The translations under genes and the position numbers were made by a program. Source: an uncultured archaeon (GTDB lineage: Archaea > Asgardarchaeota > Lokiarchaeia > Sigyniarchaeales > SOKP01). Taken from it: a stretch of 64,000 bases of DNA. Positions 1 through 57,814 of this stretch are shown one piece after another (the stretch's first letter is position 1; each line of letters opens with the position of its first letter). The stretch covers positions 48,246 through 112,245 of the forward strand of contig CAYLZE010000007.1 of assembly GCA_964388035.1 (NCBI GenBank). The letters are read 5' to 3'. The notes beneath the pieces were generated by a model. The model was not told where the DNA came from, did not search any database, and saw only the letters and a program-made list of their open reading frames with translations.

Positions 1-466
1 TCGAGCAAGTATGGGAGGTAGTCAGGCTGAAAGGAAAGCCATATTGGCGTAATATATTACAAACAGAGAGTTTGCCACAAAATGCATCGCGTCGATATTT
101 TCGAGACATTTTATCGACTTCATCTGACGAGGCTTGAACTAATATGGGAACATTGAGGTCCGCTATTTTTAAAGTATTTGCAATTCCTTTTTCATCTCCA
201 AAATTTGGAAGACATATTATAATCCCTGAAATTTTATCTCGATTTTTTTTAAATAATTCCCCGCATTTTTTCGCATCCTGGTAAGTTCTTACCACACCAG
301 AATCGGTTTCTGATTCGTCAATAATAATATACTTATAGTTCAATTCTTTCATTACTTCAAGAATTTCTTGTCTTCCCTCTGCAGCAAGATGAATGGGAAA
401 TGCATCTCTGTTACCCACGATAATACCAAACGTGAATTCAGATTTAGGTGGTTTTATAAACGACAT
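1..466 (-). CDS. L-fucose/L-arabinose isomerase family protein, N-terminal part (runs off the window start)
   Basis: Not in the ORF track. Manual translation from ATG at 466 gives MSFIKPPKSEFTFGIIVGNRDAFP...IICLPNFGDEKGIA...YRRDAFCGKLSVCNILRQYG, open to the edge; LPNFGDE and RRDxFCGK are typical of this family. Confidence 0.8.
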   Translation of the reverse strand, partial: MSFIKPPKSEFTFGIIVGNRDAFPIHLAAEGRQEILEVMKELNYKYIIIDESETDSGVVRTYQDAKKCGELFKKNRDKISGIIICLPNFGDEKGIANTLKIADLNVPILVQASSDEVDKMSRKYRRDAFCGKLSVCNILRQYGFPFSLTTSHTCS

Positions 467-39606: not shown

Positions 39607-41757
39607 TTAAGATGCATCAATTGATTCTAGTTTCTCAAATACATGAGTAATTGAAGAAATGATGTTTGGCACATCAAGAACAATACAGATTGATCCATCA
39701 CCGGTAATCGTCACTCCCAATATTTCCTTAAAAGAAGAGTATTTTGATCTAAACGGTTTTATCACCAAATCCATTTGTTGCAGAATTTCATCTATTATGA
39801 ATATTGCTGAATCTTTTTCATCTTTATTACAATAGATTGCAATTTTTCCTTTAGATTCTGCATCGGATTTAACTCTTTCTTGTTTTTCATCATCTTTTGG
39901 AACTTCAGGACTTTCGATTGAAGGATCTGTTGTGAGAATTAAGTCCTCTATTTTTTCTTGTTCCATTTGTGTTGAAATATTTAAATATCGGTCTAATCTG
40001 ACGATGGGTACTAAATCAGAACCAAGACGGTAATATTCTTCACCTTTCACGTATTCTACCAACTCACGAGAAAAGAAATAAATTTGATTGATATTTTCAA
40101 TGGGAATCGCATAGAGATCTCCAGCCACTTTAAACATTTGAGCTTTTAAAATAGCTCTTGAAAAAGGCACGGTCAGCGAAAAGATAGTTCCTTTCCCAGG
40201 AGTAGAAGCTAAGTTAAGAGAACCTCCGAGTTCCTTGATTTTTTCGGCAACTATAGCAAGACCCATCCCTCTCCCCGAAATCAGATCTGCGCTGGATAAT
40301 GTTGAAAATCCGGGAGTGAATAACACTTTTTTAAGATCACTTTCGGAGAGTTCCGTTGCTTCTTCGGGGGTATATAATCCTAATTCTATTGCTTTAGTTC
40401 TTGTTCTTTCATAATCTATTCCCTTACCATCATCTTCTATTTGGATGATTACTGAACCGGCTCTTCTAAAGGTTTTAAGTTTAAGGTTCCCCATTCCCGA
40501 TTTTCCCAGGCTCCTTCTAATATCAGGGGTTTCAATTCCGTGATAAATAGCATTCCTTAAGAGATGAATCAAAGGACTATTTAATTGTTCAAGAATCTTC
40601 CTATCAATCTCTACATCCGTTCCTTCCAACAAGAATTTCACATTTTTATTCGTTTCTTTTGAAACATCCCGGACCAATCGTCTATATCTTCTAAATGCTG
40701 ATTCTACACGCACAAGTTTTAACTTAAAAATGATCTCTTGTATTTCTAAAAATAACTTATCCATGCTATCAAAGTAGCGATTCACCCCCCAATCTCCACG
40801 TGAAGAAAGAATTTGACTTAATTGATTTTTAATAATAATGACTTCTCCAAAATAATCCATGAGTTCTTCTAATGTTTCTATATTTACCTTAACAGACGTG
40901 ATTCTTCCCAATTCATCTTCAAAAGAACCAGTTGTGCTGGGAACTCTATCAATACCTTTTTGTTCAATGACTTGCTCTTCTCTCCGAGCATCTTTTTTCA
41001 ATTTAGAATTGGCCTCTAATAAAACATCTTTGAATTGCTTAGACGAAAGGGGTGCAATTGATTTATTTTCAATTTCTAAGATTTCATCTAACACTTGCGT
41101 TATTTTTTTCGAATCATGCTCCGTAAGATAATAGATTGCCAATTTGAGGTCAAACTGACCATTTTCTAATAAATATGGTTCTGGATCACTCCAATATATT
41201 TGACCAATCTCATTTAACGCCCTAAAAATAATAAACAATCTAACTTTTTTAAATACGCAGGTAGATTGTAATTCTATTGTTATTTTATAAAACCTATTTT
41301 TTTTATTGGTGGTCAATGAGTCTATTTGATCATTGGGAATGGTTTTAATAAAGGTAATTTCATAATCCGATTGAAATTCTTCAAATCCTTCTTTTAATTC
41401 TTTAACCATTCTATCATCTATATCTTTAATTTCTCCTGCCTTGGCCTGCTTAGTTACAAGTCTCAAAACATCTAGACTTTCGAACATCAATTCTACTATT
41501 TCCCGGGATTTATTGGCTGATACTTCTTCTTCCTTTGCTTTATCAAGTAAATTCTCAAAATTATGACAAAATTCGGAGAGATTGTCTAATCCGACCATGG
41601 CAGTCATTCCTTTTAATGTATGGAATGTAAAATATAAATTCTGGATTGCTTTTTTATTATCTGGATTTTCCTCTAAATTTAACACGTTATCTTCAATAGT
41701 CTGAACTAAATCTTCTGTCTCCGAAAGGAAGATTTTCATATCTTCATTTGACGCCAT
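39607..41757 (-). CDS. cheA: Chemotaxis histidine kinase CheA
   Basis: Hpt FHTLKGM, P2 domain, HLLRNAIYHGIE, EDDGKGID, PGFST, SGRGMGL, C-terminal CheW-like P5 domain. Confidence 0.97.
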   Translation of the reverse strand: MASNEDMKIFLSETEDLVQTIEDNVLNLEENPDNKKAIQNLYFTFHTLKGMTAMVGLDNLSEFCHNFENLLDKAKEEEVSANKSREIVELMFESLDVLRLVTKQAKAGEIKDIDDRMVKELKEGFEEFQSDYEITFIKTIPNDQIDSLTTNKKNRFYKITIELQSTCVFKKVRLFIIFRALNEIGQIYWSDPEPYLLENGQFDLKLAIYYLTEHDSKKITQVLDEILEIENKSIAPLSSKQFKDVLLEANSKLKKDARREEQVIEQKGIDRVPSTTGSFEDELGRITSVKVNIETLEELMDYFGEVIIIKNQLSQILSSRGDWGVNRYFDSMDKLFLEIQEIIFKLKLVRVESAFRRYRRLVRDVSKETNKNVKFLLEGTDVEIDRKILEQLNSPLIHLLRNAIYHGIETPDIRRSLGKSGMGNLKLKTFRRAGSVIIQIEDDGKGIDYERTRTKAIELGLYTPEEATELSESDLKKVLFTPGFSTLSSADLISGRGMGLAIVAEKIKELGGSLNLASTPGKGTIFSLTVPFSRAILKAQMFKVAGDLYAIPIENINQIYFFSRELVEYVKGEEYYRLGSDLVPIVRLDRYLNISTQMEQEKIEDLILTTDPSIESPEVPKDDEKQERVKSDAESKGKIAIYCNKDEKDSAIFIIDEILQQMDLVIKPFRSKYSSFKEILGVTITGDGSICIVLDVPNIISSITHVFEKLESIDAS

Positions 41758-41799: not shown

Positions 41800-42177
41800 T
41801 TATTTTTTTAACAATCTTTCCAAGACTTCCTCTACTTGTTCATTTTTAAAAGGTTTTTGAATAAAATCTTTAGCACCTTTTTTTGCTGCTTCTAACACTA
41901 ATGCTTCCTGACCCAATGCAGACACCACCACAATGATTGCATTTTTATCAAGCTTTAACAATTCTTCAGTAGTCTCTATTCCCCCTTTTTCAGGCATAAC
42001 TAAATCCATGGTGACCAAATCAGGCTTCAACTTTTTATATAGTGTAATGGCCTCATTCCCATTTACAGCCTCTCCCACCACTTCAGTATAAGCCGTATTA
42101 TCTATAATTTTCTTTAACATGTTGCGGGTGAAAGCAGCATCGTCCACGATAAGAACCCTTTTTTTGTTATTTGACAT
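41800..42177 (-). CDS. cheY: Chemotaxis response regulator CheY
   Basis: VLIVDDAAF.R, PDLVTMDLVMP, SALGQ, GAKDFIQKPF (Bacillus/archaeal type). Confidence 0.97.
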   Translation of the reverse strand: MSNNKKRVLIVDDAAFTRNMLKKIIDNTAYTEVVGEAVNGNEAITLYKKLKPDLVTMDLVMPEKGGIETTEELLKLDKNAIIVVVSALGQEALVLEAAKKGAKDFIQKPFKNEQVEEVLERLLKK

Positions 42178-42231: not shown

Positions 42232-42753
42232 TTAAATAATAGATTTTTGATCTTGTTGAAGAGAAATTTGTTCTGCTTCTGATAATATTTCGCGTAAATC
42301 TATGAGAATTCTCGGTCTATCCTTGAATTTAACCACGCTTTTTATGTATTTAATATCACTAAGACCCGTCTGAAAAATTGGACTCAGTCCAACCAAGTCT
42401 TTTCTGGTGATGTGAGAAACCTTAATGATCCGATCTACATAGAAGCCAATTTGCATGTCCCGTATATTCACTATAATGATAAATTTCTTTCCTGAATCGT
42501 TTTTATCGTTTAAATTTTGAGCTTTATAAATGTCATAATCATCCAAATTCAATTTCTTTTTTAAATTAATAATGTGAATGATATTACCCCTGTAATTGTA
42601 AATACCTTCTATAAAATCTAGGCTCTTGGGTAATCTTCTAATTTGCCCGGTTTGAATAATTTCTTTAACATCCAAAAGATCTATCACAAATTCCTCCCAT
42701 CCTACTTTAAAAATAATTAAGGAAATCTGTTCTTCAAGCTGTTGTTCTCCCAT
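42232..42753 (-). CDS. cheW: Chemotaxis coupling protein CheW
   Basis: IIFKVG.EEF.ID...VKEII, LPKS.DFIEGI.N.RGNII.IINL, GFYVDRI. Confidence 0.95.
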   Translation of the reverse strand: MGEQQLEEQISLIIFKVGWEEFVIDLLDVKEIIQTGQIRRLPKSLDFIEGIYNYRGNIIHIINLKKKLNLDDYDIYKAQNLNDKNDSGKKFIIIVNIRDMQIGFYVDRIIKVSHITRKDLVGLSPIFQTGLSDIKYIKSVVKFKDRPRILIDLREILSEAEQISLQQDQKSII

Positions 42754-42993: not shown

Positions 42994-43989
42994 TCATTTT
43001 GTTACCTTTGCTTCAGCACTTGCTTTCTGTTCAACAGCATGAATATCCAATGTTTTCTTCAACTCATCTGCTAAAGTACCGAGTCTATTAGCGGTAGCTG
43101 CGATGTCATCCATAGATGCTTTTTGTTGATCTGTTGCCTTCATAACTGCCTCGATGTTTTCTTCATTTTCTTCTTCATGATGTTCGACATCTTCAATCTC
43201 CTGAGTAACTGCATCAATGGCAGTGGTAGTTCCTTCGATTAAACTTTCAATAAGGTCTATATTTTTTGATGATTTAGAAACCGATCCTTTTGATTCTTCC
43301 GCGAGCTTTCTTACTTCATCGGCTACTACTGCAAATCCACGACCATGCTCCCCCGCCCTTCCCGCTTCAATGCTTGCATTAAGGGCTAACAGATCCGTTT
43401 GTTCAGATATTTTTGTAATGATTTCCATGACTTGATCAATATCTTTAGTATGGGTGATTATTTCATGAGCATTTTTATCGATGGTTTCTGAGTGACTCTC
43501 TATTTCTTTTAAGGCCTTTACTTGTGCCACGGTTGCATTATCTAATTTATGCATCCTTTCGGTGATTTCACCTGCTGTTGCGTCAACCTGTGTAGCACTT
43601 GCAGATAATTCTGCTGCGATGCTGGACACATTAATAGCGACTTCTTCGGCATGATCAACGATAGATTCCATGGAAAATTCTTTTTGTGCAAGTTCTTCCA
43701 TTGTTTGAATTAATCTATATTCAATCATAACAACTAATCCTGTAGATAAGATTAGAACTGCTGATGCTAAACTCATCAGATCAGAAATTACATCTGCCAT
43801 TCCTGCTTCAGTAAAAATTGCTATTCCATTCCATCCAAATCCAATGGTGAGATTCAAGAATAAAATCATAATTAAAAGCCGACTCAAGCTACTAGTATTG
43901 CGTCGATATGCATCGATCATTAACATAGCACTAATGCCAAAAAAGACAGCTCCCATAATAAACATTAGACCTGAAAATACATCTACCAT
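42994..43989 (-). CDS. Methyl-accepting chemotaxis protein with a 3-TM N-terminus
   Basis: [40 protein letters not shown] hairpin tip; three N-terminal TM helices. Confidence 0.95.
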
Positions 43990-43990
43990 G

Positions 43991-44311
43991 TTATTTACCT
44001 CCTCTTACGGATGATTCTTGAGTTGTCGTTTCGGTTTTCTTTAAAGCCACACGCCTATAATATACGACCCCGACCAGGGAAAATATTCCCGCGAGAAAGA
44101 AACATAATGCTTCTACTGTGGGATTGCCAAGATACATGAATAAAACTGAACCAGCCATCGAAAGGAATGTGAGAAGAAATATGCGCAATTCAGGTTTTCT
44201 ATAAGCATTGATTATAAATATAATGATCCCTAAGATGTAATAGATTAAAACCATTGGATCTATAAATGCCATTATTGCTGATTCTTCAGCTGTTGCTGTT
44301 TGTAATATCAT
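43991..44311 (-). CDS. Small 3-TM membrane protein, translationally coupled to the MCP
   Basis: Three hydrophobic helices; GGAGGTAAA-TAA-C-ATG junction to the MCP; GAGGTG SD. Confidence 0.8.
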
Positions 44312-45046
44312 AAGTTACACCTCTTTTTTTTAGTCTTACCATTTTTACTCCTTTTATTTTAATTTATTATAAGGATATTATTTTTGTTGTCAAAAAAAAT
44401 TACGAGTTATAATTTTTTATATACAAAACACAAGAAATTCTATTTAAATGTTTCCTTTAGAATAACTATTAAATTTTAAAATATCAATTCTTTCTCAATA
44501 GAAAATAGATATTAAAGGTAGTAGGTAAAAGGGAAAAATGTGATAAAATTATTTTTTTAATATTCTAAAAATATTTTTGGAAATAATTTTGTAATAAAAA
44601 AGAAGTTTTGTACAAAAAAAGGTAAAATTGATTGATAATCTTTTTTTCCTTATCATTTAATTAATGCTTATTTTCATTAGGATTTTTGATTCAATGAAGT
44701 GAACCTTTCAAAAATATATAAATTATTAAGCAGAAACCATTATATAATCATTAATTTTTTGCTTCTAATATACTTCAGATTACCATGCGAATATTACCTT
44801 TTTTATGAGCGAAAGCTTGAAAGTCAATTTTGTGATTAATAATTAAATTTTTTAAAAAAAAGATATAAAAAAACCTAACTTTTTTCATTCAAACTTTACT
44901 TGTGTTAAAAAAAAGAGCGTTCAACTTGAGCATATAAATTTTTTTGAATACTTTTGATAGTAAATTCATTACATTAATAAAATCATAAAGAAAGTTTATT
45001 AAATAAATGTTGAATATTAATATATTAGAAAATATTAAGTTATATA

Positions 45047-45313
45047 ATGACTGAAGAAAAAAAGTTGGAAATTGAAAACAATATTAATAGGAAATTACTT
45101 CTCATAAAAAAAACATTGAAAAATATAGAGGAAATTTTCATTTTATTCAAACCCCTTTTTGAAAAAATCATTGAACTCGAGGAATCTGAGGAATTTATAA
45201 GAGATGGATCATTTCTTCGAGTATCATCATTATTTGGAGAGATTTCGAAGGATTTTAAAGAAATGGGGGGATTACCGATTTCCAAGGAATTTTTAGAAAG
45301 TCTTTTAAATTAA
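45047..45313 (+). CDS. Small helical hypothetical protein
   Basis: 88-aa ORF with ATG after an AT-rich promoter-like region; typical composition. Confidence 0.6.
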   Translation: MTEEKKLEIENNINRKLLLIKKTLKNIEEIFILFKPLFEKIIELEESEEFIRDGSFLRVSSLFGEISKDFKEMGGLPISKEFLESLLN

Positions 45314-45509
45314 AATTTAAATTGGGTTTTTTGAATAATTCTCTTTCTATAATATTTCATGCTTCCTCTTACCAATTTTTATAAATAATTTGAAGATTAT
45401 TTAATTACCTATTCAATAATAGTTACAGCATGAGCTTTAATTAATGTTGAATTAATAGATTAGTTATAACATCCTTCATTATGATTTATTCAAGTCAAGA
45501 AAATTATAA

Positions 45510-46160
45510 ATGGTAAAATCAACCATGAGTAAATTTGATACTTTATCAAACAGACTATTTTCCAAAGTTGCAGGGGGTATTTATGGATTAATTTCTTCTG
45601 TTATCGCGGGATTAGGAGATATACTATCACTTCAATTTTTTCCCAATTATAGTATTGTTAATGACATGGTTTCAGAGTTAGGGATAACCAGTGGCGGTAT
45701 TTTTTTTAATTTTGGTCTTATTATTTCCGGATTAATTGGTCTCGCTTTTTATTATTCGCTAAGTAAAGTTTTCTTAAAAGAAAATCGATTGATAAGAAAA
45801 TGTGCTTTAATTTCCTCTTATTTATCTTGCATTACGTTTTCTTTAATCGGAGTATTTCCGGCTTACCAGGAAAAAGAATTAATTCTCTCGCTATATTTGC
45901 ACGGCACATTTGCTGCCTTGAGTTGGATAACGGGCAGCATGTATTGCTTCTTTTTTAGTATATTGATGATGAGGAATAAATTCTATACTAATTATTTAGC
46001 TTATTATGGATTTTTCTGTTCCGCTTTATTTATTATTCTTCTTCTGACTTGGATACCAATTTTAGAATGGAGTCTCTCGTTTGCTATTTTTGGATATGTT
46101 ATTTTTAATTCGATATATCTCATAAAAATAAACACTGAAGAATTCTCTAATTCTTCATAA
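45510..46160 (+). CDS. DUF998/Frag1-DRAM-Sfk1-like membrane protein
   Basis: YSIVNDMVSELG, FNFGLIISG, LIGVFP, LHGTFA, ILEW motifs; 5-6 TM. Confidence 0.75.
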   Translation: MVKSTMSKFDTLSNRLFSKVAGGIYGLISSVIAGLGDILSLQFFPNYSIVNDMVSELGITSGGIFFNFGLIISGLIGLAFYYSLSKVFLKENRLIRKCALISSYLSCITFSLIGVFPAYQEKELILSLYLHGTFAALSWITGSMYCFFFSILMMRNKFYTNYLAYYGFFCSALFIILLLTWIPILEWSLSFAIFGYVIFNSIYLIKINTEEFSNSS

Positions 46161-46246
46161 ATCAATCCAACCATTTTATTAATAAATTTAAAGAATATAT
46201 TAATTAATTTACTTAGATTATGAAAAATAGTAATATAATTTAATGG

Positions 46247-46927
46247 GTGATAATCATGAAAATTGAAGAATTAGAAATAACTAAGAATTTGATCATAAAT
46301 GAGTCGGATGCATTGCTTATTGTAGATATGCAATATGATTTCATGCCAGGGGGGGCTTTGCCTGTAGAAGGGGGAGATCAAATTATTGCTCCAATAAATG
46401 AGATTGAAAAAATTTTCAAGGAAAAAGGGTGTCTTATTGTTTTAACTCAAGATTGGCATCCAAAAGAACATTTATCCTTTGCGAGCAATCATCCTGGGAA
46501 AAAACCAGGAGATTCATTCCAAACAGAGGCAATAGGCCCCATTTTATGGCCGGATCATTGCGTACAAGGTTCAAAAGGCGCTGACTTTCATAATAAACTT
46601 GAAACAAAGTTAGCTCAAGCAATTATTCGAAAGGGTTATAGACCCATGGTAGACAGCTATTCAGGATTTTTGGAAAATGATAAGAAAACGGAAACAGGTT
46701 TATCAGGATATCTGAAATCTCGAAAGATCAAACGTTTGTTTATATGTGGATTGGCATTGGATTATTGCTGTTATTTCACTGCCTTGGATGGAATCTCTTT
46801 TGGTTTTGATATGGTATTTCTCATCGATATGACACGAGGTATAGATCAACCGGAAGATAATATTTCAAAGTCTTTAGAAAATATGATTTTAAAAGGTATA
46901 AAATTTGCCAATAAAGATAGTTTTTAA
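46247..46927 (+). CDS. pncA: Nicotinamidase/pyrazinamidase
   Basis: VDMQYDFMPGGALPV, TQDWHP..H.SFAS, WPDHCVQG, RKG...DSYSGF, GLALDYC. Confidence 0.95.
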   Translation: MIIMKIEELEITKNLIINESDALLIVDMQYDFMPGGALPVEGGDQIIAPINEIEKIFKEKGCLIVLTQDWHPKEHLSFASNHPGKKPGDSFQTEAIGPILWPDHCVQGSKGADFHNKLETKLAQAIIRKGYRPMVDSYSGFLENDKKTETGLSGYLKSRKIKRLFICGLALDYCCYFTALDGISFGFDMVFLIDMTRGIDQPEDNISKSLENMILKGIKFANKDSF

Positions 46928-47045
46928 CATTTTTTCTCTCTCGTTCAAATCTTTATTTTATATTACCAATTAACTATTTAAGATTTTAAAGGATTTTACA
47001 TTATTTTTAATTAGCATTTATTTTAATCAAATTAAAAAAAAGTTA

Positions 47046-47525
47046 ATGAGAAAAGATTCTTTCCCTTTTAAAAGCATATTAGTGGCTTGTAGTGTAAATA
47101 CGGCTCGCAGTCCCATGGCAGAGGGATATTTGAAGGAATACATTTCCAGAAAAGGCATGGATGTACAGATTCAATCAGGGGGAATCGCTTCTAACGCTAG
47201 AGATGGAATGTTAATCTCTTTAGATGCCCGATTAGCCATGAAAGAAGATGGTATTTTACTCCCCGAAGATTCCTTATCAGTTGATTTAAAAAAACACTCC
47301 GAAATTATAGATCAAGCAGATTTAATATTGACTTTAACAGAGCAGCATAAAACGGAAATACTGCACCATGTAAAATACAATAATAAAGTAATCCTTACAT
47401 TGAGAGAATTCGCGGGAGAATGCGGTGATATAGAAGATCCCTCCATGAAAGGAATTGAAGGATTTCGCATCGTAAGGGATGAGATCAAAGAATGTTTGAT
47501 CAAGGGGTTAGGAAAATTCTTTTAG
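47046..47525 (+). CDS. Low-molecular-weight protein phosphatase (LMW-PTP / YwlE-like)
   Basis: P-loop CSVNTARSPMAE, ADLILTLT..HK, TLREF...DIEDP. Confidence 0.88.
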   Translation: MRKDSFPFKSILVACSVNTARSPMAEGYLKEYISRKGMDVQIQSGGIASNARDGMLISLDARLAMKEDGILLPEDSLSVDLKKHSEIIDQADLILTLTEQHKTEILHHVKYNNKVILTLREFAGECGDIEDPSMKGIEGFRIVRDEIKECLIKGLGKFF

Positions 47526-47621
47526 TTTCCTTTTAAAGTATAGAAATAATAGTAAAATTTGAAATCTCATTTAACATTTATAGTTTATACGAGAACGAGA
47601 AATATCGCAAAATAAGAAGAA

Positions 47622-48476
47622 ATGCTGATTGAATATATTATTATAGCAATTTTACAAGGTCTCTTGGAATGGCTACCCATTTCATCATCGGGGCAAGTGA
47701 TGATCGTTGCAATGACCCTTTTAAACCTGCCTCCTGATGAAGCTTTTAGCTTATCAATTTGGCTTCACTTAGGTACAACTATTGCGGTGATTGTAAAATT
47801 TAGGACCAATTGCTTAAATATGATTAAAACTATCCTTCCTAAAAGAATAGATTATCAAAAAGAAGATGTGAGTAGGAGAAATTGGTTAATATTTGGTACG
47901 ATAGGTTCAGTAATCACGGCAATTCCTTTTTATTTTTTCTTTAAATTCGTGATAGGGCAAGGTTTTGGAGCATTTGAAGGAGATCTTGTTACTTTAATTA
48001 TCTCTGGATTATTGGTCATCACGGGAATTTTGCTCATCAGGTCAAGTAGAATATTTGGAACAAGGGATTTTTCCATTCTATCTAAGGAGGAAATTAGAAG
48101 AGATAGCTTTTTAGCGGGATTGATGCAAGGTTTAGCCATTCTTCCTGGAATATCTCGTTCGGGAGTAACTACTTCGACAATATTATTCGAAAATCATCAA
48201 AAAGATACCGCTTTAAGATTAAGTTTTTTAATGTCCATTCCGGTTACTTTTGGTGCCATTCTCTTTGATATTATTTTTGGGGAAGGCTCAGTATTTGGAA
48301 TATTAAATCCAATTATCATTTTAATAATCACTGCAATTAGCTTCATTGTTGGATATTTATCCATTGAAATATTGCTTAGAATAGTTAAAAAGGTTCAATT
48401 TGGCTATTTTTGTATCTTATATGGAATTATTTCATTTATAGTTATCATACCTTTTTATATCATATCTCCTCTATAG
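47622..48476 (+). CDS. uppP: Undecaprenyl/polyprenyl-diphosphate phosphatase (BacA/UppP)
   Basis: QGLLEWLPISSSG, LHLGT, QGLAILPGISRSG.T, SFLMSIP. Confidence 0.93.
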   Translation: MLIEYIIIAILQGLLEWLPISSSGQVMIVAMTLLNLPPDEAFSLSIWLHLGTTIAVIVKFRTNCLNMIKTILPKRIDYQKEDVSRRNWLIFGTIGSVITAIPFYFFFKFVIGQGFGAFEGDLVTLIISGLLVITGILLIRSSRIFGTRDFSILSKEEIRRDSFLAGLMQGLAILPGISRSGVTTSTILFENHQKDTALRLSFLMSIPVTFGAILFDIIFGEGSVFGILNPIIILIITAISFIVGYLSIEILLRIVKKVQFGYFCILYGIISFIVIIPFYIISPL

Positions 48477-48484
48477 AAAAGATG

Positions 48485-49372
48485 TCATGATCCGATTATA
48501 TTTTTAAATAAATTAATTAAGTTTGTAGTTGCATTTTCCACATCTTTATAACCGGGAAATTCGTTTAAATCCAAAAGGAAAAACACTTCATTATTGTTAC
48601 TAACCAAATCAAATCCGAATAATTTTAAATTTAACCTCTTCGCCAATATTCTACTTATTTCCTTAATATTATTAGGAACATCCAAACGTTCTCGTTTTAA
48701 GGTGTTAACATCAATATTATTAGGATGTTCTCTCAAAAAGAAATAGATGGGATTTTCTCGTTTTATTCCGAATATTTCATCCCCAATCACGTAGATTTTT
48801 CGATCCATTCCATCACATTCGATAAATTCTTGAATGTATACATCATAATATATAAATTCAGAATATCTCTCGTAAAAATAATCTATTTCCTCCTCCGAAT
48901 TCACTAAAAAATTAAAACGATTGTGTTGATCTTGTTGATAATGACTTTTTATTACCACGGGTAAGTGCTTTAATATCCATTGTTTAAAATATGGTCGATT
49001 CATCGGATTTTGATTCCACGAACGGGGCATTTTAACATTTTTGAAGATTTCGGGTTGAGATGCCATGATGTTCCTTAAATAAAGATCCAGGGCAAATTTA
49101 TTTTTACAAATCAAAACTGATGCTAAGTCGTGTAGAGTAGGGATTTGGTATAATTCAGCAAAATACAACAAGTTTAGGGAATTCTCATTCGCAACTTTAA
49201 CAAAAATAAAATTAATATCCTGAAATTGTTTTCTGATTTTTGAGATTTTAAAATAATCTTCTGCTGGATCATGATATATTATTTCCACATCTTGAATCTT
49301 CTTTAATCCAAAAATAACATTTTGGATTACTTCATCATCTCTTTTAGCGGAAAAAAGAACTTTTTTAACCAT
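48485..49372 (-). CDS. ATP-grasp enzyme, ITPK1-like inositol phosphate kinase
   Basis: YIQEFIE.DG.DRKIYVIGD, LKLFGFDLV, LLDLNEFPGY. Confidence 0.8.
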   Translation of the reverse strand: MVKKVLFSAKRDDEVIQNVIFGLKKIQDVEIIYHDPAEDYFKISKIRKQFQDINFIFVKVANENSLNLLYFAELYQIPTLHDLASVLICKNKFALDLYLRNIMASQPEIFKNVKMPRSWNQNPMNRPYFKQWILKHLPVVIKSHYQQDQHNRFNFLVNSEEEIDYFYERYSEFIYYDVYIQEFIECDGMDRKIYVIGDEIFGIKRENPIYFFLREHPNNIDVNTLKRERLDVPNNIKEISRILAKRLNLKLFGFDLVSNNNEVFFLLDLNEFPGYKDVENATTNLINLFKNIIGS

Positions 49373-49485
49373 TATTGATATTAACTCACAAGCATTCTTA
49401 ATTTTACTTTTAATATTTTTAATAAAGTTTTGATTTATTTAATAAAATTCAAAATACTTAAATAATTTCAGAGCGTCCTATTTTT

Positions 49486-50808
49486 ATGGAAGAAGAGGAG
49501 AGCATTAAACACAATTTTTCTCAAAAAAGGTTTATTACGTTCCAAATCATAATCATTGGCTTGATTTATGCGGGAGCATCAATATTTGGGTTTTACGAAT
49601 TCTCTCTTTTCAATACATACATCGAACACGTGTTACATAAAGAGTATATATACATTTCATTAATGGTCTCAATGAGCGGAACCTTTGGATTTATTTTCTT
49701 AATTATTTTTGGGACTTTAAGCGACAATACGAGGAGTAGATGGGGAAGGAGAAGACCATACCTACTTTTCGGGGTTATTGCCGGAATTACAATGTATGCA
49801 TATGCTTTTTCGCCTAATTTCTGGTGGTGCTTTTTCTTGGATGCTATTGTAATTGGGGTGGTCTCAAATGCATTTTATGCGGCTCAGCGCGTGCTAATAC
49901 CCGATATTATAGAATTAGAACATCGAGGGAGAGCAAATGGGGTCGCGCAAATAATGAGCCTATTCGGATCCATGATTCCCGTCATTTTAACGCTTTATAT
50001 AAATGAATTTTATGCAACTCACGTCAATGGAAGTACCGTGATTACACAAGATGGTTACATCCTCTCATTCGCCTTTGGGGGCTTTTCAATTGCTATAGTA
50101 TCCATATTTGGATTTGCGATGATTAAAGAAAAGCCTATTTCCTCCTTACCCAAGAAAAAATCTTTATTTGAAGATCTTAGAGCAACCTTTCATTACTCGG
50201 AATTAAAACAACATAAAGATTTCTTTATTATCCTCATTGCTTTATCCATTTTTAACATAGGAGTACGCATAATCTTGCCATTCGTGTTTAATTATTTGTT
50301 TGAATTGGGGCTGTCCACCCTCCAGTTAATTATACTTTTTAGTGTTATCATTCCTATTGCTTTAATCACTATGTATTTATTAGGAAAACTCGCGGACAAG
50401 CATGGGCGGAAGAAATTTCTGACCCCATTAATTTTGCTCTCTTCTGTAGGATTCATCGCCATCCCGTTTATAACTCCCAATACTATTATAAACTTCATAT
50501 TGTATGCTCTTGCTTTTATTTTGATATTAGTAGCATTAATGGGATTACTCGTTCCTTTAAATGCTTGGCAACAGGACCTGCTCCCAGAAAATGAACGAGG
50601 CAAATTTACGGGCATTTTAAACTTCATGGATACTATTACTCAGATTCCCGGGGCCTTTATTGGAGGTTTGATGGCTGATCTCTACGGTGTGCAATATATT
50701 TTTCTATTAGTCCCCATCTTTTTAATTGGATCTATCCCCGTTTTCAAAAAAGTTAAAGAAACTCTAATTATAAAAGAAGAATTGGAACCAAAAGAAAACT
50801 CTCATTGA
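49486..50808 (+). CDS. MFS transporter (GPH/sugar-glycoside type)
   Basis: GTLSDNTRSRWGRRRPY, GKLADKHGRK, about 12 TM. Confidence 0.92.
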   Translation: MEEEESIKHNFSQKRFITFQIIIIGLIYAGASIFGFYEFSLFNTYIEHVLHKEYIYISLMVSMSGTFGFIFLIIFGTLSDNTRSRWGRRRPYLLFGVIAGITMYAYAFSPNFWWCFFLDAIVIGVVSNAFYAAQRVLIPDIIELEHRGRANGVAQIMSLFGSMIPVILTLYINEFYATHVNGSTVITQDGYILSFAFGGFSIAIVSIFGFAMIKEKPISSLPKKKSLFEDLRATFHYSELKQHKDFFIILIALSIFNIGVRIILPFVFNYLFELGLSTLQLIILFSVIIPIALITMYLLGKLADKHGRKKFLTPLILLSSVGFIAIPFITPNTIINFILYALAFILILVALMGLLVPLNAWQQDLLPENERGKFTGILNFMDTITQIPGAFIGGLMADLYGVQYIFLLVPIFLIGSIPVFKKVKETLIIKEELEPKENSH

Positions 50809-51035
50809 AAAGTAGGAGAAGATGACGTCTTAGTTTCTTCATTAATATTTCTTTCAAATTTTAAAAGATTTTTACTAATTCATGATGGCAATTTGGAATT
50901 TCTCTATTTCTCTAAGATCGTATTAAACTTAACGTTAGAAAATTGAATATCCCTTGCATAAAATTTATATATCGTATAAAAGAATATAAATCATAAATGT
51001 TCTTTTTTTGTTAAAAAGGACATTACCGTAAGAAA

Positions 51036-51311
51036 ATGCCAGAATTTGAGATATTTGAATTTTTAGCTTTAATTTTTTTATTAATTCCATTCATTTTTGG
51101 CTATCATATTGCAAAAAAAAGGAGAGATCTGCTAGTATTATTTCCTGGTGCATTGTTGATCCTTGTATCTTTCACGTGTACTAATTTAGAAGCATTTTTT
51201 GCTCCAAACATTTTCGATTTCATTGAACATTTATCCATCATGCTGGGAGGATTCTTATTTTTGTTTGGAATGGTATATCGATATCGACATTATCACGAAA
51301 ATTATGATTAA
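51036..51311 (+). CDS. Small 3-TM membrane protein upstream of the histidine kinase
   Basis: Three TM helices; TNLEAFF...FIEHL motif; 24-nt spacer to the kinase. Confidence 0.75.
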   Translation: MPEFEIFEFLALIFLLIPFIFGYHIAKKRRDLLVLFPGALLILVSFTCTNLEAFFAPNIFDFIEHLSIMLGGFLFLFGMVYRYRHYHENYD

Positions 51312-51335
51312 TTGAATTATATAAAGTGAAATTTT

Positions 51336-52346
51336 TTGATTGAATTATTTGATGGAATATTTAACAGCGTTGCAATGATCTTGTTCATTGGTTCGATGTC
51401 CATAGCTCTTAGGGAGTTTTCTAAAAAAAGAAATGTATCTAGTCTGACTCTCGTTTTACTTTTCTTAGGAGCAACCCTTTTTTCATTAGGTAATATTCTT
51501 GATAAATTTGATATTATTGATGAAATGATCGCTGATGATATCGCAGAAGCATTTAAGATCTTTTTCGCGGTAATTGGATTTTTTTGGATCATCATTCCCT
51601 TGATGGAAGCGAAACTAAAGGAATCTGAAATTCTTTATAAAAATGCTTATAATCGTGCGAATTTTTATAAAGATTTATTTACCCATGATATGAACAATAT
51701 CCTTCAAAGCATGCTCAATTCACTAGAATTGTATTATATAGACCAAAACCAGCTTGATGATGATAAGAATGTAAATCAATATATCTCAATCCTTAAAGAA
51801 CAAACAGATCGAGCCATTTTATTAATCAGTAATGTGCAGAAATTATCAAATCTAGAAAGTGCTGACTTTTATATGGAAAAAGTAGAAATAATAGAAGTTC
51901 TAAATGATGCTCTCTCCTTCATAGAAAAAAATTTTCCAGGTAAAGATATAAAAATCACCGTTCAAGCGAACGACGGTAATTATCATATTCAAGCGAATGA
52001 ATTACTTCTGGATGTATTCGAAAATTTATTAATCAACTCAATTAAACATAATTCTAATCCCACGATTAAAATGAAAATCAAAGTTTCGAAAAAGCTCAGG
52101 AATAATAAAAGAGAGATAAAAATGAGCTTCATTGATAACGGTAGAGGCATTCCAGATTCAAGAAAAGAAGAGATTTTTAAAAGATCGCCTGAAGTTAAAA
52201 GATCAATTGAAGGGATGGGAATGGGATTATCTCTCGTTAAAATTATCGTGGATAACTTTAAAGGAAGCATTCAGGTAAAAGATAGAATTAAAAATGATCA
52301 AATTAAAGGTAGTATTTTTATTCTCTATTTTCCTGATGCCGGTTAA
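51336..52346 (+). CDS. Sensor histidine kinase with a 3-TM N-terminus
   Basis: H-box THDMNNILQ, N-box ENLLINSIKH, DNGRGIPD, GMGMGLSLV. Confidence 0.93.
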   Translation: MIELFDGIFNSVAMILFIGSMSIALREFSKKRNVSSLTLVLLFLGATLFSLGNILDKFDIIDEMIADDIAEAFKIFFAVIGFFWIIIPLMEAKLKESEILYKNAYNRANFYKDLFTHDMNNILQSMLNSLELYYIDQNQLDDDKNVNQYISILKEQTDRAILLISNVQKLSNLESADFYMEKVEIIEVLNDALSFIEKNFPGKDIKITVQANDGNYHIQANELLLDVFENLLINSIKHNSNPTIKMKIKVSKKLRNNKREIKMSFIDNGRGIPDSRKEEIFKRSPEVKRSIEGMGMGLSLVKIIVDNFKGSIQVKDRIKNDQIKGSIFILYFPDAG

Positions 52347-52499: not shown

Positions 52500-53873
52500 A
52501 TGAATTTATTCACAAAAATTATATTATTAGATGAAAAAATGGAAGATAAAACAAAAATAGACAAAGTACTTGATGAAAAATTAGAAGAAAAAACGAGAGT
52601 AGGGAAACTTCCTAAGTTTATATTCCTCGAAGCAATCATAATCGGGATTGTCGTTGCTGCAGATCAAGTTTACGGATTCATTGAGCAAAACTTTTTTAAT
52701 ACTTATATAGCACACGTTCTACTTCTTCCGGATATCTACGTATCAATAATGGTTTCCTGTTCCGCAGCCATGGGGCTCGTTTTCCTCTTGGTTTGGGGCA
52801 TTTTTAGTGATAATACGAGATCGAAATATGGAAGAAGAAGGCCTTATCTCTTGATTGGAGGGCTTGTTACCGGTACTGCGGCGATCCTTTATGGATTCAG
52901 TCCCACTTATTTAGTAGCATTTTTGATTGATGTTGTGATTTTAGGAATTTCAAGTAATGCTTATTTTGCTGCAGACAGGGCAATCGTGCCTGATACCATG
53001 GATCAAGAGTATCGCGGTAGAGCTAATGGGGTCATTACATCAATCGGTAATTTGGGTGTATTAATTGGAGTCACTCTTTTTTTGGTAAGCGATCTCTTAT
53101 TCACGGTACCAGCCCCTTCAGGTGAAGGTAATTTCTTAACTCAAGAAGGACATCAATTTGTGTTAACTTTTGGTGGTATCTTCATGATCATCGCCTCTAT
53201 CATCGGTTTTCTACTCATCAAAGAAAAACCCGTATCAGAACTCCCACCAAAAAAGCGATTTAAGGAAGAATTTGTAGAAATGTTTAATTTCCAAGCCATG
53301 AAAGAGCATAAAGAGTTTTTTAAAATAATGATAGCATACATGGTCTATCAATGTGGAGTCGGAACCATAATGCCCTTTCTCTTTATCTACATTTTCGCAC
53401 TTGGTCTGACTACACTTCAACTTTTTATTGGCATTGTCATAGGTTTTCCTTTACTCATCTTAATTACAGTTTTATTGGGAAAAAGTTCGGACAAATATGG
53501 TCGCAAGAAACCGATCCCAATTGCAATTGTATTGATGAGTGTCGGTGTTGCTTTAGCTTCATTCGTTAAAACAAGTGCAGGTCCTAATGTGCTCCTCTTC
53601 TTCATATCATTACCTTTTGTCTTGGTGGCACTTCTTGGAATGCCGGCTCCTATAAATGCATATTCTCAAGACTTACTCCCTGAAGATCAACGAGGAAAGT
53701 TTTATGGAATATTGAACATTGTTTTCACAGTCCCGCAAATTATCGGTTCCATAATCGCTGGATTTGTTTCAATGATCTTTGGATTACAATGGATTTTCTT
53801 AGTTGCAATAATATTCTTCTTAGGTTCAATTGTTTTCTTCAAGTTCGTCAAGGAAACAATGAATATTGAATAA
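52500..53873 (+). CDS. MFS transporter (GPH type), paralogue of 49486-50808
   Basis: GIFSDNTRSKYGRRRPY, RGRANG, QDLLPEDQRGKFYGI shared with the upstream paralogue. Confidence 0.92.
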   Translation: MNLFTKIILLDEKMEDKTKIDKVLDEKLEEKTRVGKLPKFIFLEAIIIGIVVAADQVYGFIEQNFFNTYIAHVLLLPDIYVSIMVSCSAAMGLVFLLVWGIFSDNTRSKYGRRRPYLLIGGLVTGTAAILYGFSPTYLVAFLIDVVILGISSNAYFAADRAIVPDTMDQEYRGRANGVITSIGNLGVLIGVTLFLVSDLLFTVPAPSGEGNFLTQEGHQFVLTFGGIFMIIASIIGFLLIKEKPVSELPPKKRFKEEFVEMFNFQAMKEHKEFFKIMIAYMVYQCGVGTIMPFLFIYIFALGLTTLQLFIGIVIGFPLLILITVLLGKSSDKYGRKKPIPIAIVLMSVGVALASFVKTSAGPNVLLFFISLPFVLVALLGMPAPINAYSQDLLPEDQRGKFYGILNIVFTVPQIIGSIIAGFVSMIFGLQWIFLVAIIFFLGSIVFFKFVKETMNIE

Positions 53874-54997: not shown

Positions 54998-57814
54998 CTA
55001 TTTTCCGCGTATCCCGTCAATTAGAAGCCTTAATGCTGTCATAATGTTCAAGTTCATACCTTGCTTTGGAAATTTAAGTTCCTTTGTAGGATCAAAATTT
55101 GCATTCACTTTTCTTACCCAATCCATGTAAGTTAAATCCAATAATTCAACGACCCCAAATTCTTCTTTCAATGCATCAGCATTTTCCTTCAACCGTGAAA
55201 AGTTATCTTCCAAGTTCGACGCGTCTTTGCTTTTAAATAAAACTAAAGGAGGGAGGGAGAAATGATTCGCAAAGGATTGCTTATCCTCGGGAGGAGAATC
55301 TCCTTCATATGGCATGATAACTAATTCAAAAGATACGTTCTTACCGCTGAACGTGGGCGCAGAAGATTCCAAAGTACCAAATAGGGTAGGAATTAATTTT
55401 TGACCGTGTCCCGTACCAAGGGTCCAATAATGCAAATATCTTCCAAAATAAGTTCCAAACGGATTGATTCTAACTTGCTGTGCCTTTTCCCTACAATCTC
55501 CAAATCCCTTATCTCTTATCTTTAGGGGAGTAAATGCGAAATTTGCAGCTTTTAAAGCATTATAGCCAATTAGCATGCCTTTTTTCCTATCTGATACTCC
55601 CATCCATCCATCCGTAACATTTGCCACTAAACAATCAATATCCGCATTTTTCGAATCTACTTCTTTCATGTCCAGGTCAAAGTAAGAGAGCCTTCCTAAA
55701 TAATTATGTTTCCATATTCGAAGGAAATTTTCCTTCCCCATGATCATTGGTTTTATCTCACAAGGCATTATTTCTAACCATCTCTTATCATACTGTTCCT
55801 CTACAAAAGAAGTTCCATCTGCAATTACCTCCTCTCCTTTAATATCACATAAATCAATTGAAACATCGACGAAAATATAAGCTAAATCAGCATATATTTT
55901 GAGGACTTTTTCACCACGCACGAGTGAACCGGGCAGTATTTCGAATTCGCTTTTTATTTTCACGGATGCCGAGAATTCATCGGTGCCATCCCTGATAATT
56001 ATAATATCATCCCTTTCTGACTCGAATCTTCTCTCCTTGCCTATTTCCCCAAAGGTAATTGCAGATTCTAAAAATCTAGGACAAGCGTATTCCATACCTT
56101 TAAATTTAAAAGAAATTATTTTTCCTTTTTCATTGAATTTTACTGCAAGGAATTTATTTTTTAATAGAGATGTTGTAGCTATTAATTCATTGAGTTCACT
56201 TTTTTTATCACCGAATTGTTCTAAAGAAATCTCCATGGAATAATTTCCAAATTCTTGAAAATTTGAGGGAGAAAGGATGGATTCAATACATAATTTTGAA
56301 TCTAAATTATCTTCATAAAAAGCATACTTCACATTTTTATCTTTTGAGATGAAATATGTTGACTTAAATTCTTTTTTTCTATTTATTAGATCGCGAGCAA
56401 ATTCAGAAGGAAGTTCTTCTTTTATCAGAATTTGAGAATCTACCGGTTTTTTTTCTTCCACGGATATGCCTCTATTTATTATGGGATAAATTACAATACT
56501 CGATTTATCTATAGATGACACTTCTTTTGAATTAAAAACAAGTTCTTCTTTTGCTAATGCCATCGCATTCAATGAAGCATATAATGCTCTCAATCCATAA
56601 GCCATTGCAGTCTTCTGTCTTTGAGGATGTTGGAACGGCATGGACAGCCCAAAATTAGTAGTCGAAGCAAAAAGAACCTTATTTCTAAAATACGTATTGG
56701 ATTGATCATTCCCATCTCTTAAATAAGAGTTAATTTGAGGAGTAGATTTCCTCACGTGACCTTCTTCAATTAATGTATCTGCCATGCATTTGAGCCACCG
56801 TGCTTTTTGTCCCACAGTCCAGAATTTTGTATTATCATGTTTTTGAGCCCAACTATAAAAGCCATTCCAATTTCCATCTGCAGCATCTTCTCTTAATATA
56901 ATATCACCCCGAATCTCCATCTTAGGAATTATATCCATGAGGTTTGCGAATTCAACATAATCATGTTGATCTACTGCTTCTGCAAACTCCATCAAGCCCC
57001 TAGAATTGGGCATCCATTGAAGAAAAGAGGGGAGAGGTACGGAAAGCCATAAATCGTAATCCATATCAAAATTCAAAAAGATAAGAGCATGCCCCTTTAT
57101 ATCATCTCTTTCTTGTGCCTTTCTAATATGCTTAAACCATCGTTTTATGGAACAATAATCTAAAACATCTCCAAACCCATACATCGGAATCATTAATATT
57201 GATGCATCGGAAACAGCTGAATTGAATTTTACAGGCCCGTATCTCTGATTCCAGTCTAGTCTGGGATTTAAAAAGGGTCTAGCTACATCAAATTGATACA
57301 CGGAATAATAGATGCAAATTCCTTCAATTCCTAATTTATTATATACTTCAATCATTCCTTGAGTAAACATTGTTTCCTGTGTGCGAGCATAAGGGGCCAC
57401 TCTTCCTTTAAATAATTGTCTAACGCCGATATCCATGGAATTTTCTTGAAACCAGGTTTGATCTTGGATTAGTTCCTCCGTGTCAAGAATGGGCTGAGCT
57501 ACATTCGCCCACGAGCCAAAAAGCACCTCGTCCTTTCCCTTCTTGCATCTCTCTATAACTCTGTCGAGAACATCTTGTTGATATTCTTTTTGCAATTGGA
57601 TGGACCAGAAGATATCACCATAATCCCAAGAAATTCTCATATCTCTAAATGAAAAACCCTTATCCTCAATCTCATCTAATTTGTCAAGTATACCTTTCAT
57701 TAAGTTTAAATCTTTTCCAAATCCGGTAACTCCTCGGGAGTCACCGCGGTATGAATGATAATAGTTAATGTGTGGACTCAAGGCAAGATATATTTTCTTA
57801 TCTTCTAAGCGCAT
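54998..57814 (-). CDS. Large GH38/GH57-like glycoside hydrolase
   Basis: N-terminal PHINYYHSYRGD metal-type motif, DMDYDLW, C-terminal beta-supersandwich (LLKNKFLAVKFNEKGKIISF...VRGEKVLKIYAD). Confidence 0.6.
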   Translation of the reverse strand: MRLEDKKIYLALSPHINYYHSYRGDSRGVTGFGKDLNLMKGILDKLDEIEDKGFSFRDMRISWDYGDIFWSIQLQKEYQQDVLDRVIERCKKGKDEVLFGSWANVAQPILDTEELIQDQTWFQENSMDIGVRQLFKGRVAPYARTQETMFTQGMIEVYNKLGIEGICIYYSVYQFDVARPFLNPRLDWNQRYGPVKFNSAVSDASILMIPMYGFGDVLDYCSIKRWFKHIRKAQERDDIKGHALIFLNFDMDYDLWLSVPLPSFLQWMPNSRGLMEFAEAVDQHDYVEFANLMDIIPKMEIRGDIILREDAADGNWNGFYSWAQKHDNTKFWTVGQKARWLKCMADTLIEEGHVRKSTPQINSYLRDGNDQSNTYFRNKVLFASTTNFGLSMPFQHPQRQKTAMAYGLRALYASLNAMALAKEELVFNSKEVSSIDKSSIVIYPIINRGISVEEKKPVDSQILIKEELPSEFARDLINRKKEFKSTYFISKDKNVKYAFYEDNLDSKLCIESILSPSNFQEFGNYSMEISLEQFGDKKSELNELIATTSLLKNKFLAVKFNEKGKIISFKFKGMEYACPRFLESAITFGEIGKERRFESERDDIIIIRDGTDEFSASVKIKSEFEILPGSLVRGEKVLKIYADLAYIFVDVSIDLCDIKGEEVIADGTSFVEEQYDKRWLEIMPCEIKPMIMGKENFLRIWKHNYLGRLSYFDLDMKEVDSKNADIDCLVANVTDGWMGVSDRKKGMLIGYNALKAANFAFTPLKIRDKGFGDCREKAQQVRINPFGTYFGRYLHYWTLGTGHGQKLIPTLFGTLESSAPTFSGKNVSFELVIMPYEGDSPPEDKQSFANHFSLPPLVLFKSKDASNLEDNFSRLKENADALKEEFGVVELLDLTYMDWVRKVNANFDPTKELKFPKQGMNLNIMTALRLLIDGIRGK

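Follow-up and report, generated by a model that had tools for sequence, protein, structure and literature searches.

In the haloarchaeal sensory rhodopsin II (SRII)-HtrII pairs, a separately encoded, co-transcribed membrane protein signals within the membrane to a transducer of the methyl-accepting chemotaxis protein (MCP) type that has no large outside domain, and the last transmembrane (TM) helix of the transducer conveys the signal inward. For histidine kinases, separately encoded membrane proteins that act at the TM region are known from MgrB/SafA-PhoQ, MzrA-EnvZ, LiaF-LiaS, YycH/I-WalK and Abx1-CovS, and some of these proteins are encoded beside their kinase. SRII-HtrII and the kinase accessory proteins appear to be the nearest functional counterparts, with no match in sequence, of a gene pair that occurs twice in a 64,000-nucleotide stretch of DNA (hereafter the window; GenBank assembly GCA_964388035.1, contig CAYLZE010000007.1, positions 48,246 to 112,245) from an uncultured archaeon of the Asgardarchaeota (Lokiarchaeia; Sigyniarchaeales; SOKP01). 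In each copy a small gene for a protein with three TM segments, the partner (pA or pB), stands before a receptor gene whose product begins with a 3-TM module of its own; the receptor is an MCP (rA) in the first copy and a histidine kinase (rB) in the second. The two loci are quite probably paralogous copies of one conserved two-gene membrane sensor, in which partner and receptor would assemble together. We classify the pair as a membrane co-sensor of two-component and chemotaxis receptors that is widespread, unnamed and present in split and fused forms.

How does this pair compare with the described systems? Unlike in SRII-HtrII, the partner has three TM segments instead of seven, the receptor has three instead of two, no HAMP domain is detected, and the module also serves histidine kinases and is found in Bacteria as well. 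A sensory rhodopsin is a 7-TM opsin with a retinal-binding lysine in helix 7; the partners are 3-TM proteins of 91-106 amino acids (aa) that lack any opsin or retinal signature, and no rhodopsin family in Pfam matches at E<=1. The kinase accessory proteins show no sequence relationship, are for the most part confined to particular lineages and tend to have one TM segment or an extracytoplasmic domain, and we know of no natural fusions to their kinases and no sharing with MCPs. In contrast to them, the two proteins described here are associated in a near-obligate way, and partner and receptor TM module are possibly paralogues.

In architecture, the closest counterparts appear to be the polytopic sensor domains, again with none matching in sequence. 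7TMR-DISM_7TM (PF07695), HisKA_7TM (PF16927), 5TMR-LYT and MASE also combine a polytopic membrane input and several outputs with the lack of a large soluble sensor, and the fused relatives of the pair are 7-TM proteins with an outside N-terminus and a cytoplasmic C-terminus (N-out/C-in). The common form of the pair differs in consisting of two polypeptides with 3+3 TM segments and no fourth helix. The best match to 7TMR-DISM_7TM, from one receptor over a gapped span, reaches 14.4 bits against a cut-off of 29, with only noise and no true member in control genomes, and the fusions P0017, L038, L039 and L040 give nothing at E<=0.1; no match to HisKA_7TM was listed at E<=0.1. The ethylene-receptor domain ETR1_N (PF25487) resembles the receptor module as a 3-TM, N-out sensor directly before a kinase-type output. 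It was matched by one receptor (E 0.021; 15.5 bits, cut-off 27), with equally weak matches in 10 of 14 control genomes, and its Cys/His ligands for Cu(I) in TM2 are absent from the receptors, whose TM2 reads GGxLYxLGN. No earlier description of the pair was found in the literature, work on Asgard and archaeal two-component systems included, and neither Pfam nor NCBIfam holds a model for the partner family.

Two gene pairs with one topology

The arrangement that had drawn attention to these loci, a small 3-TM gene directly before both the MCP and the kinase, is confirmed by open reading frames (ORFs) separated by 1 and 24 nt, respectively (Table 1). The output of rA is identified by the MCPsignal domain (PF00015; 110.6 bits against a cut-off of 34.6, E 1e-31). 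For rB, Pfam gives HATPase_c at 64.6 bits (E 1.3e-17) and HisKA at 22.1 bits, under the cut-off of 26.9 (E 1.6e-4); the H-box FTHDMNN is readable about 25 residues past TM3, so that rB has both the HATPase_c domain and the dimerization and phosphotransfer (DHp) helix with its phospho-acceptor His that define a HisKA-type kinase. Pfam finds no match for pA, pB or the N-termini of rA and rB. No HAMP domain was detected in rA; rB has neither PAS nor HAMP, and no response regulator was found adjacent to its gene.

A hydropathy scan gives three TM segments each for pA, pB and the kinase N-terminus. The N-terminus of the MCP has four hydropathy windows, the last two of which overlap (63-81 and 76-94) and are read as one third TM. 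By the positive-inside rule, both partners and both receptor N-termini are N-out/C-in, with basic loops after TM1 and TM3; this assignment agrees with the cytoplasmic signalling domains that follow TM3 of the receptors. At the pA-MCP junction, the stop codon TAA, a single C and the ATG follow each other directly. The end of pA reads ...AGAGGAGGTAAATAA and contains a GGAGG Shine-Dalgarno-like core within its coding sequence, a layout compatible with translational coupling.

Homology between the two pairs

Single-sequence searches of the archaeon's own genome reveal no paralogue. A word-based search with pA recovers only pA itself, and a search for related loci from pB alone gives no match. Families were built from related genomes before profiles were compared. 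Within its taxonomic family, pB has over 20 homologues, each about 100 aa long; for pA there is one clear orthologue (35% identity), which precedes an rA-like MCP in genome G054. With hhalign, the pA family matches the pB family with a probability of 89.8% (E 1.8e-6, score 37.7; reversed control 0.4%), and a TM-only profile of rA matches a TM-only profile of the rB type with 92% (E 5.9e-7, score 39.8; reversed control 0.6%). The reversed-profile controls, which preserve composition and the three-segment pattern, score 12-13.

The same relationships emerge when the whole 5.47-Mb genome is scored, with its 10,075 ORFs of 60 aa or more. A hidden Markov model (HMM) of the partner, built on the stand-alone members (70-135 aa) among 150 listed representatives of the family, places pB at the top (7.7e-25) and pA next (E 0.0036), followed by a fused kinase on contig C10 (0.015) and the N-terminus of rB (0.11). 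With the TM-only receptor HMM, rB is the top match (9e-29) and the MCP comes next (0.015, with an end-to-end alignment). In this genome, then, neither pair has a closer relative than the other, and the gene order is the same in both. The proposal that they are homologous, made in the initial annotation, is borne out by profile similarity well beyond shared hydrophobicity, judged by both the reversed-profile controls and the genome-wide ranks. Within the family, pB (5.8e-31 to alignment A1) has all motifs present (KKRRD, PG, TNLEA, F(D/N)FIEH), and pA is a divergent member in which D18, N63 and E67 are retained and the TM2-TM3 loop is shortened.

Partner and receptor module are also similar to one another: hhalign gives 50% and 73%, with controls at 2-3.5%, and the partner HMM cross-matches some type II receptor modules (see below) with E down to 6e-7. 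Judging from these profiles, the two halves are possibly ancient duplicates.

Distribution and gene neighbourhood

When 1.84 billion representative proteins are searched exhaustively by HMMER with a pB-type profile, the partner family comprises 832 clusters (50% identity) at E<=1e-3 and 81 at E<=1e-10. The best 150 of the 832 representatives are nearly all 85-115 aa long, with one fusion of 617 aa among them. The nearest homologues come from Lokiarchaeota, Promethearchaeota, Hermodarchaeota and Heimdallarchaeota, and look-alike clusters in the ESM Atlas, labelled only 'hypothetical protein', from Thermodesulfobacteriota, Bacteroidota, Myxococcota and Methanobacteriota. A sequence search of the PDB with the partner profile returned nothing below E 0.7. 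Within the phylum of the window, 72 of 400 sampled genomes have the partner, and 65 of these are among the 134 genomes of the archaeon's own family.

In 100 related genomes, nearly every small homologue is followed, at -41 to +42 nt, by a receptor with an rB-like N-terminus; the exception in spacing is a locus with a broken receptor (L019, 233 nt). The receptors are MCPs, short kinases and PAS kinases. Starting from the receptor instead, the best receptor-module loci in the same genomes have a partner in 31 of 31 cases, directly upstream in 25 (gaps of -79 to +42 nt; one of these partners lay concealed under an ORF called too long) and fused within one ORF in the other six. Both copies in the window share this adjacency, as do four of four bacterial loci, which come from Pirellulales, Desulfobacterales (two loci) and a Planctomycetota metagenome-assembled genome. 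The bacterial partners are 91-92 aa long (the Planctomycetota one is listed as a longer frame) and overlap or abut a multi-PAS kinase, in which the 3-TM N-terminus has the pattern NxLEW...IED...W..FY.F.QE. The arrangement is accordingly conserved in Asgard archaea and in Bacteria, and the module is wired to MCPs, histidine kinases and multi-PAS kinases, in keeping with the different outputs first noticed in the window.

Four subtypes of the pair can be assigned by motif. Subtype I, to which pB belongs, combines TNxEA/FNxxEH in the partner with GNxLDKW/D..GE in the receptor; subtype II combines W..TVxE/LNxxEH..Y with NxLEW/IEDY, and subtype III xLED/xxLEN with GExLEVF; pA and rA represent subtype IV. 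All 14 classified type I partners are paired with a type I receptor, the pairs of types II, III and IV are all matched, and no cross-type pair was seen. The outputs vary within a subtype, type I pairs leading to 11 MCPs and three histidine kinases, the window's own kinase counted. Matching subtypes and differing outputs together indicate that the inherited and re-used unit is the partner plus the 3-TM module, and that the output is exchangeable, in line with the proposal in the initial annotation.

Some loci are unusual in other respects. A tandem of two pairs, a type I partner with an MCP and then a type II partner with a kinase, is found at L082 (G044:C95:21200-25200) with L063; the type II kinase has 844 aa and four PAS domains, and its own 3-TM module is matched by the partner HMM at 1.3e-6. 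Genomes G024 and G054 have large expansions, with 11 and 15 receptor-module matches, respectively, including tandem arrays of fused MCPs of 370-390 aa (e.g., G024:C6 at 193769, 196221, 217487 and 238652). In a Desulfobacterales chromosome (CP070769.1), the receptor has an in-frame stop between TM2 and NxLEW (L043:3926-3928), with a run of N upstream at the same locus; the stop could be a sequencing error, a pseudogene or recoding.

Natural fusions and a structural model

A search for single-chain homologues, proposed in the initial annotation, does recover such proteins. In P0017 (617 aa), the partner is followed by an extra linker TM, the receptor module and then PAS-HisKA-HATPase_c. A clade of fused MCPs (370-390 aa; P0163-P0171 and L038-L040) has the same collinear layout. 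The archaeon itself encodes a fused kinase of 439 aa (contig C10:54974-56293; L047:1147-2466), again in the order partner-like 3-TM unit, linker TM and receptor 3-TM unit, and its DHp region YRNSYNRAEFYKDIFAHDISNILQS closely resembles that of rB. In the phylum sample, about 55 of 127 partner-profile matches lie in long frames, some of which may be cross-matches to receptor modules.

All fusions have an extra hydrophobic stretch of 35-53 residues between the two halves, in which one TM is expected. The linker TM is needed because two N-out/C-in units are joined head to tail, and with it the fused forms have seven TM helices. The count of six TM segments that had been proposed would consequently apply to the split form, with a 3-TM partner and a 3-TM receptor module, and not to the fused forms.

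An AlphaFold model of P0017 as a single chain (checked alignment A10) is a confident seven-helix bundle, in which residues 11-90 and 130-250 have predicted local distance difference test scores higher than 90. Table 1 lists the helices; the last TM (185-258) runs unbroken into the cytoplasmic signalling helix. In a structure search with this model, the top 50 matches are all 7-TM bundles of the G-protein-coupled receptor (GPCR) type. A designed GPCR-like fold reaches a Z-score of 16.2, and LYCHOS and the adhesion and class C GPCRs reach 12-13.6, in alignments of about 205-210 residues. These values are to be read with the search tool's caveat that unrelated helical bundles often reach Z of about 13-14, and with identities here of 7-12%. 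Foldseek gives E of about 3e-3 and target TM-scores of about 0.45-0.5. As far as the model goes, the likeness to GPCRs is one of shared helix arrangement and is not evidence of common descent.

Polar residues at the outer face

Conserved acidic residues, which the initial annotation had pointed out in the third TM of partner and receptor alike, are confirmed. E64-H65 at the start of the partner's TM3 are nearly invariant in alignment A1. They are invariant in A5, which comprises 49 partners of the bacterial type and has E6, E53, E65 and H66 without exception and T50 and N62 nearly so. In the receptor, D67 ahead of TM3 is nearly invariant (alignment A2). The family pattern of the partner is E-(TM1)-basic loop-(TM2)-T/N-x-E ... 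N-x-x-E-H-(TM3), that is, a Glu before TM1, Thr/Asn-x-Glu ending TM2 and Asn-x-x-Glu-His starting TM3. Receptors have Asp/Asn before TM1, Asn-x-x-Asp/Glu after TM2 and Asp-x-x-x-Glu before TM3; the kinase module of the window reads DG..N, KKR, GNILDKF, ADDIAE and MEAKL.

Placed by the helix limits of the P0017 model, the partner motifs fall at the outer start of TM1 (E5/E8), in the last turns of TM2 (T49, T50, E52) and two turns into TM3 (E64-N65, E-H in most members). The receptor motifs fall before TM1 (D/N), at the outer end of TM2 (N174, E177) and at the outer start of TM3 (D186, D190). These conserved polar residues are no more than one or two helical turns away from the outer surface of the membrane, and the model thus puts the partner and receptor sets at equal depth, in the outer leaflet or interface. 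The fused kinase P0017 keeps both sets, and the clade of fused MCPs has lost both at once, which suggests that the sets function jointly. They would either make up one site at which both chains bind an outside cue or act as a polar zipper between the chains. That the cluster is a ligand or ion site is somewhat less likely than not. That its ligand would be a cation or a proton is more doubtful still, and a cation or small polar molecule as the outside cue is a guess.

Proposed mechanism and alternative explanations

What might a second three-helix chain contribute to a receptor that has three helices of its own? In the mechanism proposed here, the partner (90-110 aa, 3 TM, N-out/C-in) would be made together with its receptor, whose N-terminus is a matching three-helix module of identical topology. 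The two would lie next to each other and form one six-helix bundle for each receptor subunit, giving twelve helices per receptor dimer by analogy with homodimeric MCPs and kinases. An outside cue would act on the acidic/His cluster of the bundle, and the resulting change would shift TM3 of the receptor. With neither HAMP nor another linker in between, TM3 would then pass the signal to the signalling helix and hairpin of the MCP, and on to CheW-CheA-CheY, or to the DHp helix of the kinase. Fusion, synteny and co-variation make it likely that partner and receptor physically assemble into one sensor.

Several points weigh against this interpretation. Pairwise similarity between the two copies is nil by BLASTP (E=10 for pA and pB, E=0.079 for the receptor N-termini), and the genome-wide E-values for pA (0.0036) and rA (0.015) are modest. 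Co-inheritance alone predicts that neighbouring genes co-vary. The bacterial context comes from four loci only, out of one contig scan with a bacterial partner, and a weaker receptor match (L084) has no upstream partner, its outer-face motifs being missing as well. The loss of polar residues in fused forms fits a role in assembly at least as well as a ligand site. Finally, what is observed is family membership, synteny, natural fusion, co-varying subtypes, topology and, in the model, helix continuity; contact between the chains, their joint site and the kind of signal are inferred.

The main alternative, which we regard as unlikely, is that the partner binds the membrane module of the receptor to regulate it or to help its assembly, as MgrB/SafA-PhoQ or LiaF-LiaS would suggest, and takes no part in a ligand site. 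The abundance or state of the partner would set the activity of the kinase or MCP, and the polar residues would only zip helices together. Small membrane proteins that regulate kinases are an established class, which counts in its favour; the loss of both motif sets in the fused MCP clade would be sensible if the covalent link replaces the zipper, and the possible paralogy of partner and module would fit a decoy or modulator copy. However, the association is near-obligate (31 of 31 loci), looks stoichiometric and is apparently translationally coupled. Fusions fix the ratio at 1:1, which is unusual where the level of a regulator is the signal, and four invariant charged or His residues in 49 diverse sequences exceed what a helix zipper typically needs.

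The pair could also be a naturally split 7-TM receptor of the GPCR type, with an outer site made by two chains and a likeness to eukaryotic receptors due to common descent. The model of P0017, which aligns with the GPCR-type fold over about 210 residues, recalls the reconstitution of split GPCRs in this respect, but the identity of 7-12% and the lack of a TM4 equivalent in the split form set the pair apart, and we consider this reading as a whole very improbable. Were it true, the composite outer site would bind an external cation or small molecule and drive chemotaxis or a phosphorelay, and in Asgard archaea the fused forms would be 7-TM receptors in a single chain, coupled to prokaryotic outputs.

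Still less probable is that the small genes are pseudogene remnants of 7-TM receptor genes split by a stop or frameshift. Fused forms are common in the Asgard family (the roughly 55 of 127 partner-model matches in long frames) and a few loci do contain in-frame stops (L043, L067), as such an origin would have it. Against this stand 832 stand-alone clusters of uniform length from several bacterial phyla, with start codons of their own and invariant residues, and a ribosome-binding motif ahead of the MCP start; moreover, split forms are not simply truncated fusions, because they have no linker TM. Coincidence, with two unrelated hydrophobic ORFs before two receptors and a purely compositional likeness, is scarcely credible: BLASTP finds nothing significant and TM segments often yield spurious profile matches, but the real scores of 38-40 compare with 12-18 for reversed profiles, pA and rA are each second-best among the 10,075 ORFs, synteny is conserved and fusions are documented.

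Genomic context of the two loci

The features of both loci are collected in Table 1. The output genes of the che operon, for CheW, a receiver-domain protein (CheY) and CheA, lie on the same strand directly downstream of the MCP. DNA of the locus is present in salt-marsh and sediment metagenomes; no RNA data set was listed as containing it.

Table 1. Features of the two loci (nucleotide positions in the window) and helices of the P0017 model (residue numbers).
Feature	Position	Strand	Description
Partner A (pA)	43991-44311	minus	106-aa 3-TM protein, first gene of che operon, rare subtype IV
MCP (rA)	42994-43989	minus	331 aa; 3-TM module, then helix leading straight to MCP signalling domain
MCP 3-TM membrane module	43705-43989	minus	rA residues 1-95
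cheW	42232-42753	minus	Pfam CheW
cheY	41800-42177	minus	Pfam Response_reg
cheA	39607-41757	minus	Pfam Hpt/P2/H-kinase_dim/HATPase_c/CheW
Shine-Dalgarno-like motif AGAGGAGGT	43997-44005	minus	within 3' end of pA, 7-8 nt before MCP ATG
Partner B (pB)	51036-51311	plus	91-aa 3-TM protein, subtype I
Kinase 3-TM membrane module	51336-51620	plus	rB residues 1-95
Histidine kinase (rB)	51336-52346	plus	336 aa, TTG start
P0017 model helices, partner half	6-28, 30-52, 57-88		
P0017 model helix, linker	98-116		
P0017 model helices, receptor half	122-152, 155-178, 185-258		

The pB-kinase pair is flanked on the same strand by two paralogous genes for transporters of the MFS_1/MFS_2 type (49486-50808 and 52500-53873), of which the upstream one is also found in a genome of the same genus (L012). 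These transporters may hint at the stimulus of rB.

About 55 nt upstream of the pA start, positions 44366-44393 (minus strand) match the bacterial sigma-70 consensus at 12 of 12 positions (TTGACA, 16 nt, TATAAT); in this archaeal genome the match is probably an AT-rich, TATA-like region. The che operon is separated from the next genes by an AT-rich gap (26% GC over 44001-46000), inside which a DUF998 membrane protein is encoded at 45510-46160 (E 6e-8). Elsewhere in the window, an ORF of 938 aa (54998-57814, minus strand) has no Pfam match at E<=0.001 and adjoins a gene for a zinc-type alcohol dehydrogenase.

Significance

For most prokaryotic receptors without an outside domain, to our knowledge, the input is not known. 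The module described here offers a testable input for this whole class. It belongs to an unnamed family of at least 832 clusters in Asgard archaea, Methanobacteriota and several bacterial phyla, found in the near-obligate company of kinases or chemoreceptors. The family merits a model in Pfam or NCBIfam, which would name thousands of 'hypothetical proteins'. As a two-chain sensor with a natural one-chain, seven-helix version, the pair is a clean system for the study of helix signalling to kinases and MCPs in the absence of HAMP. For the archaeon itself, a partner-receptor pair heads the only che operon in the window and thus probably defines what this chemotaxis pathway senses.

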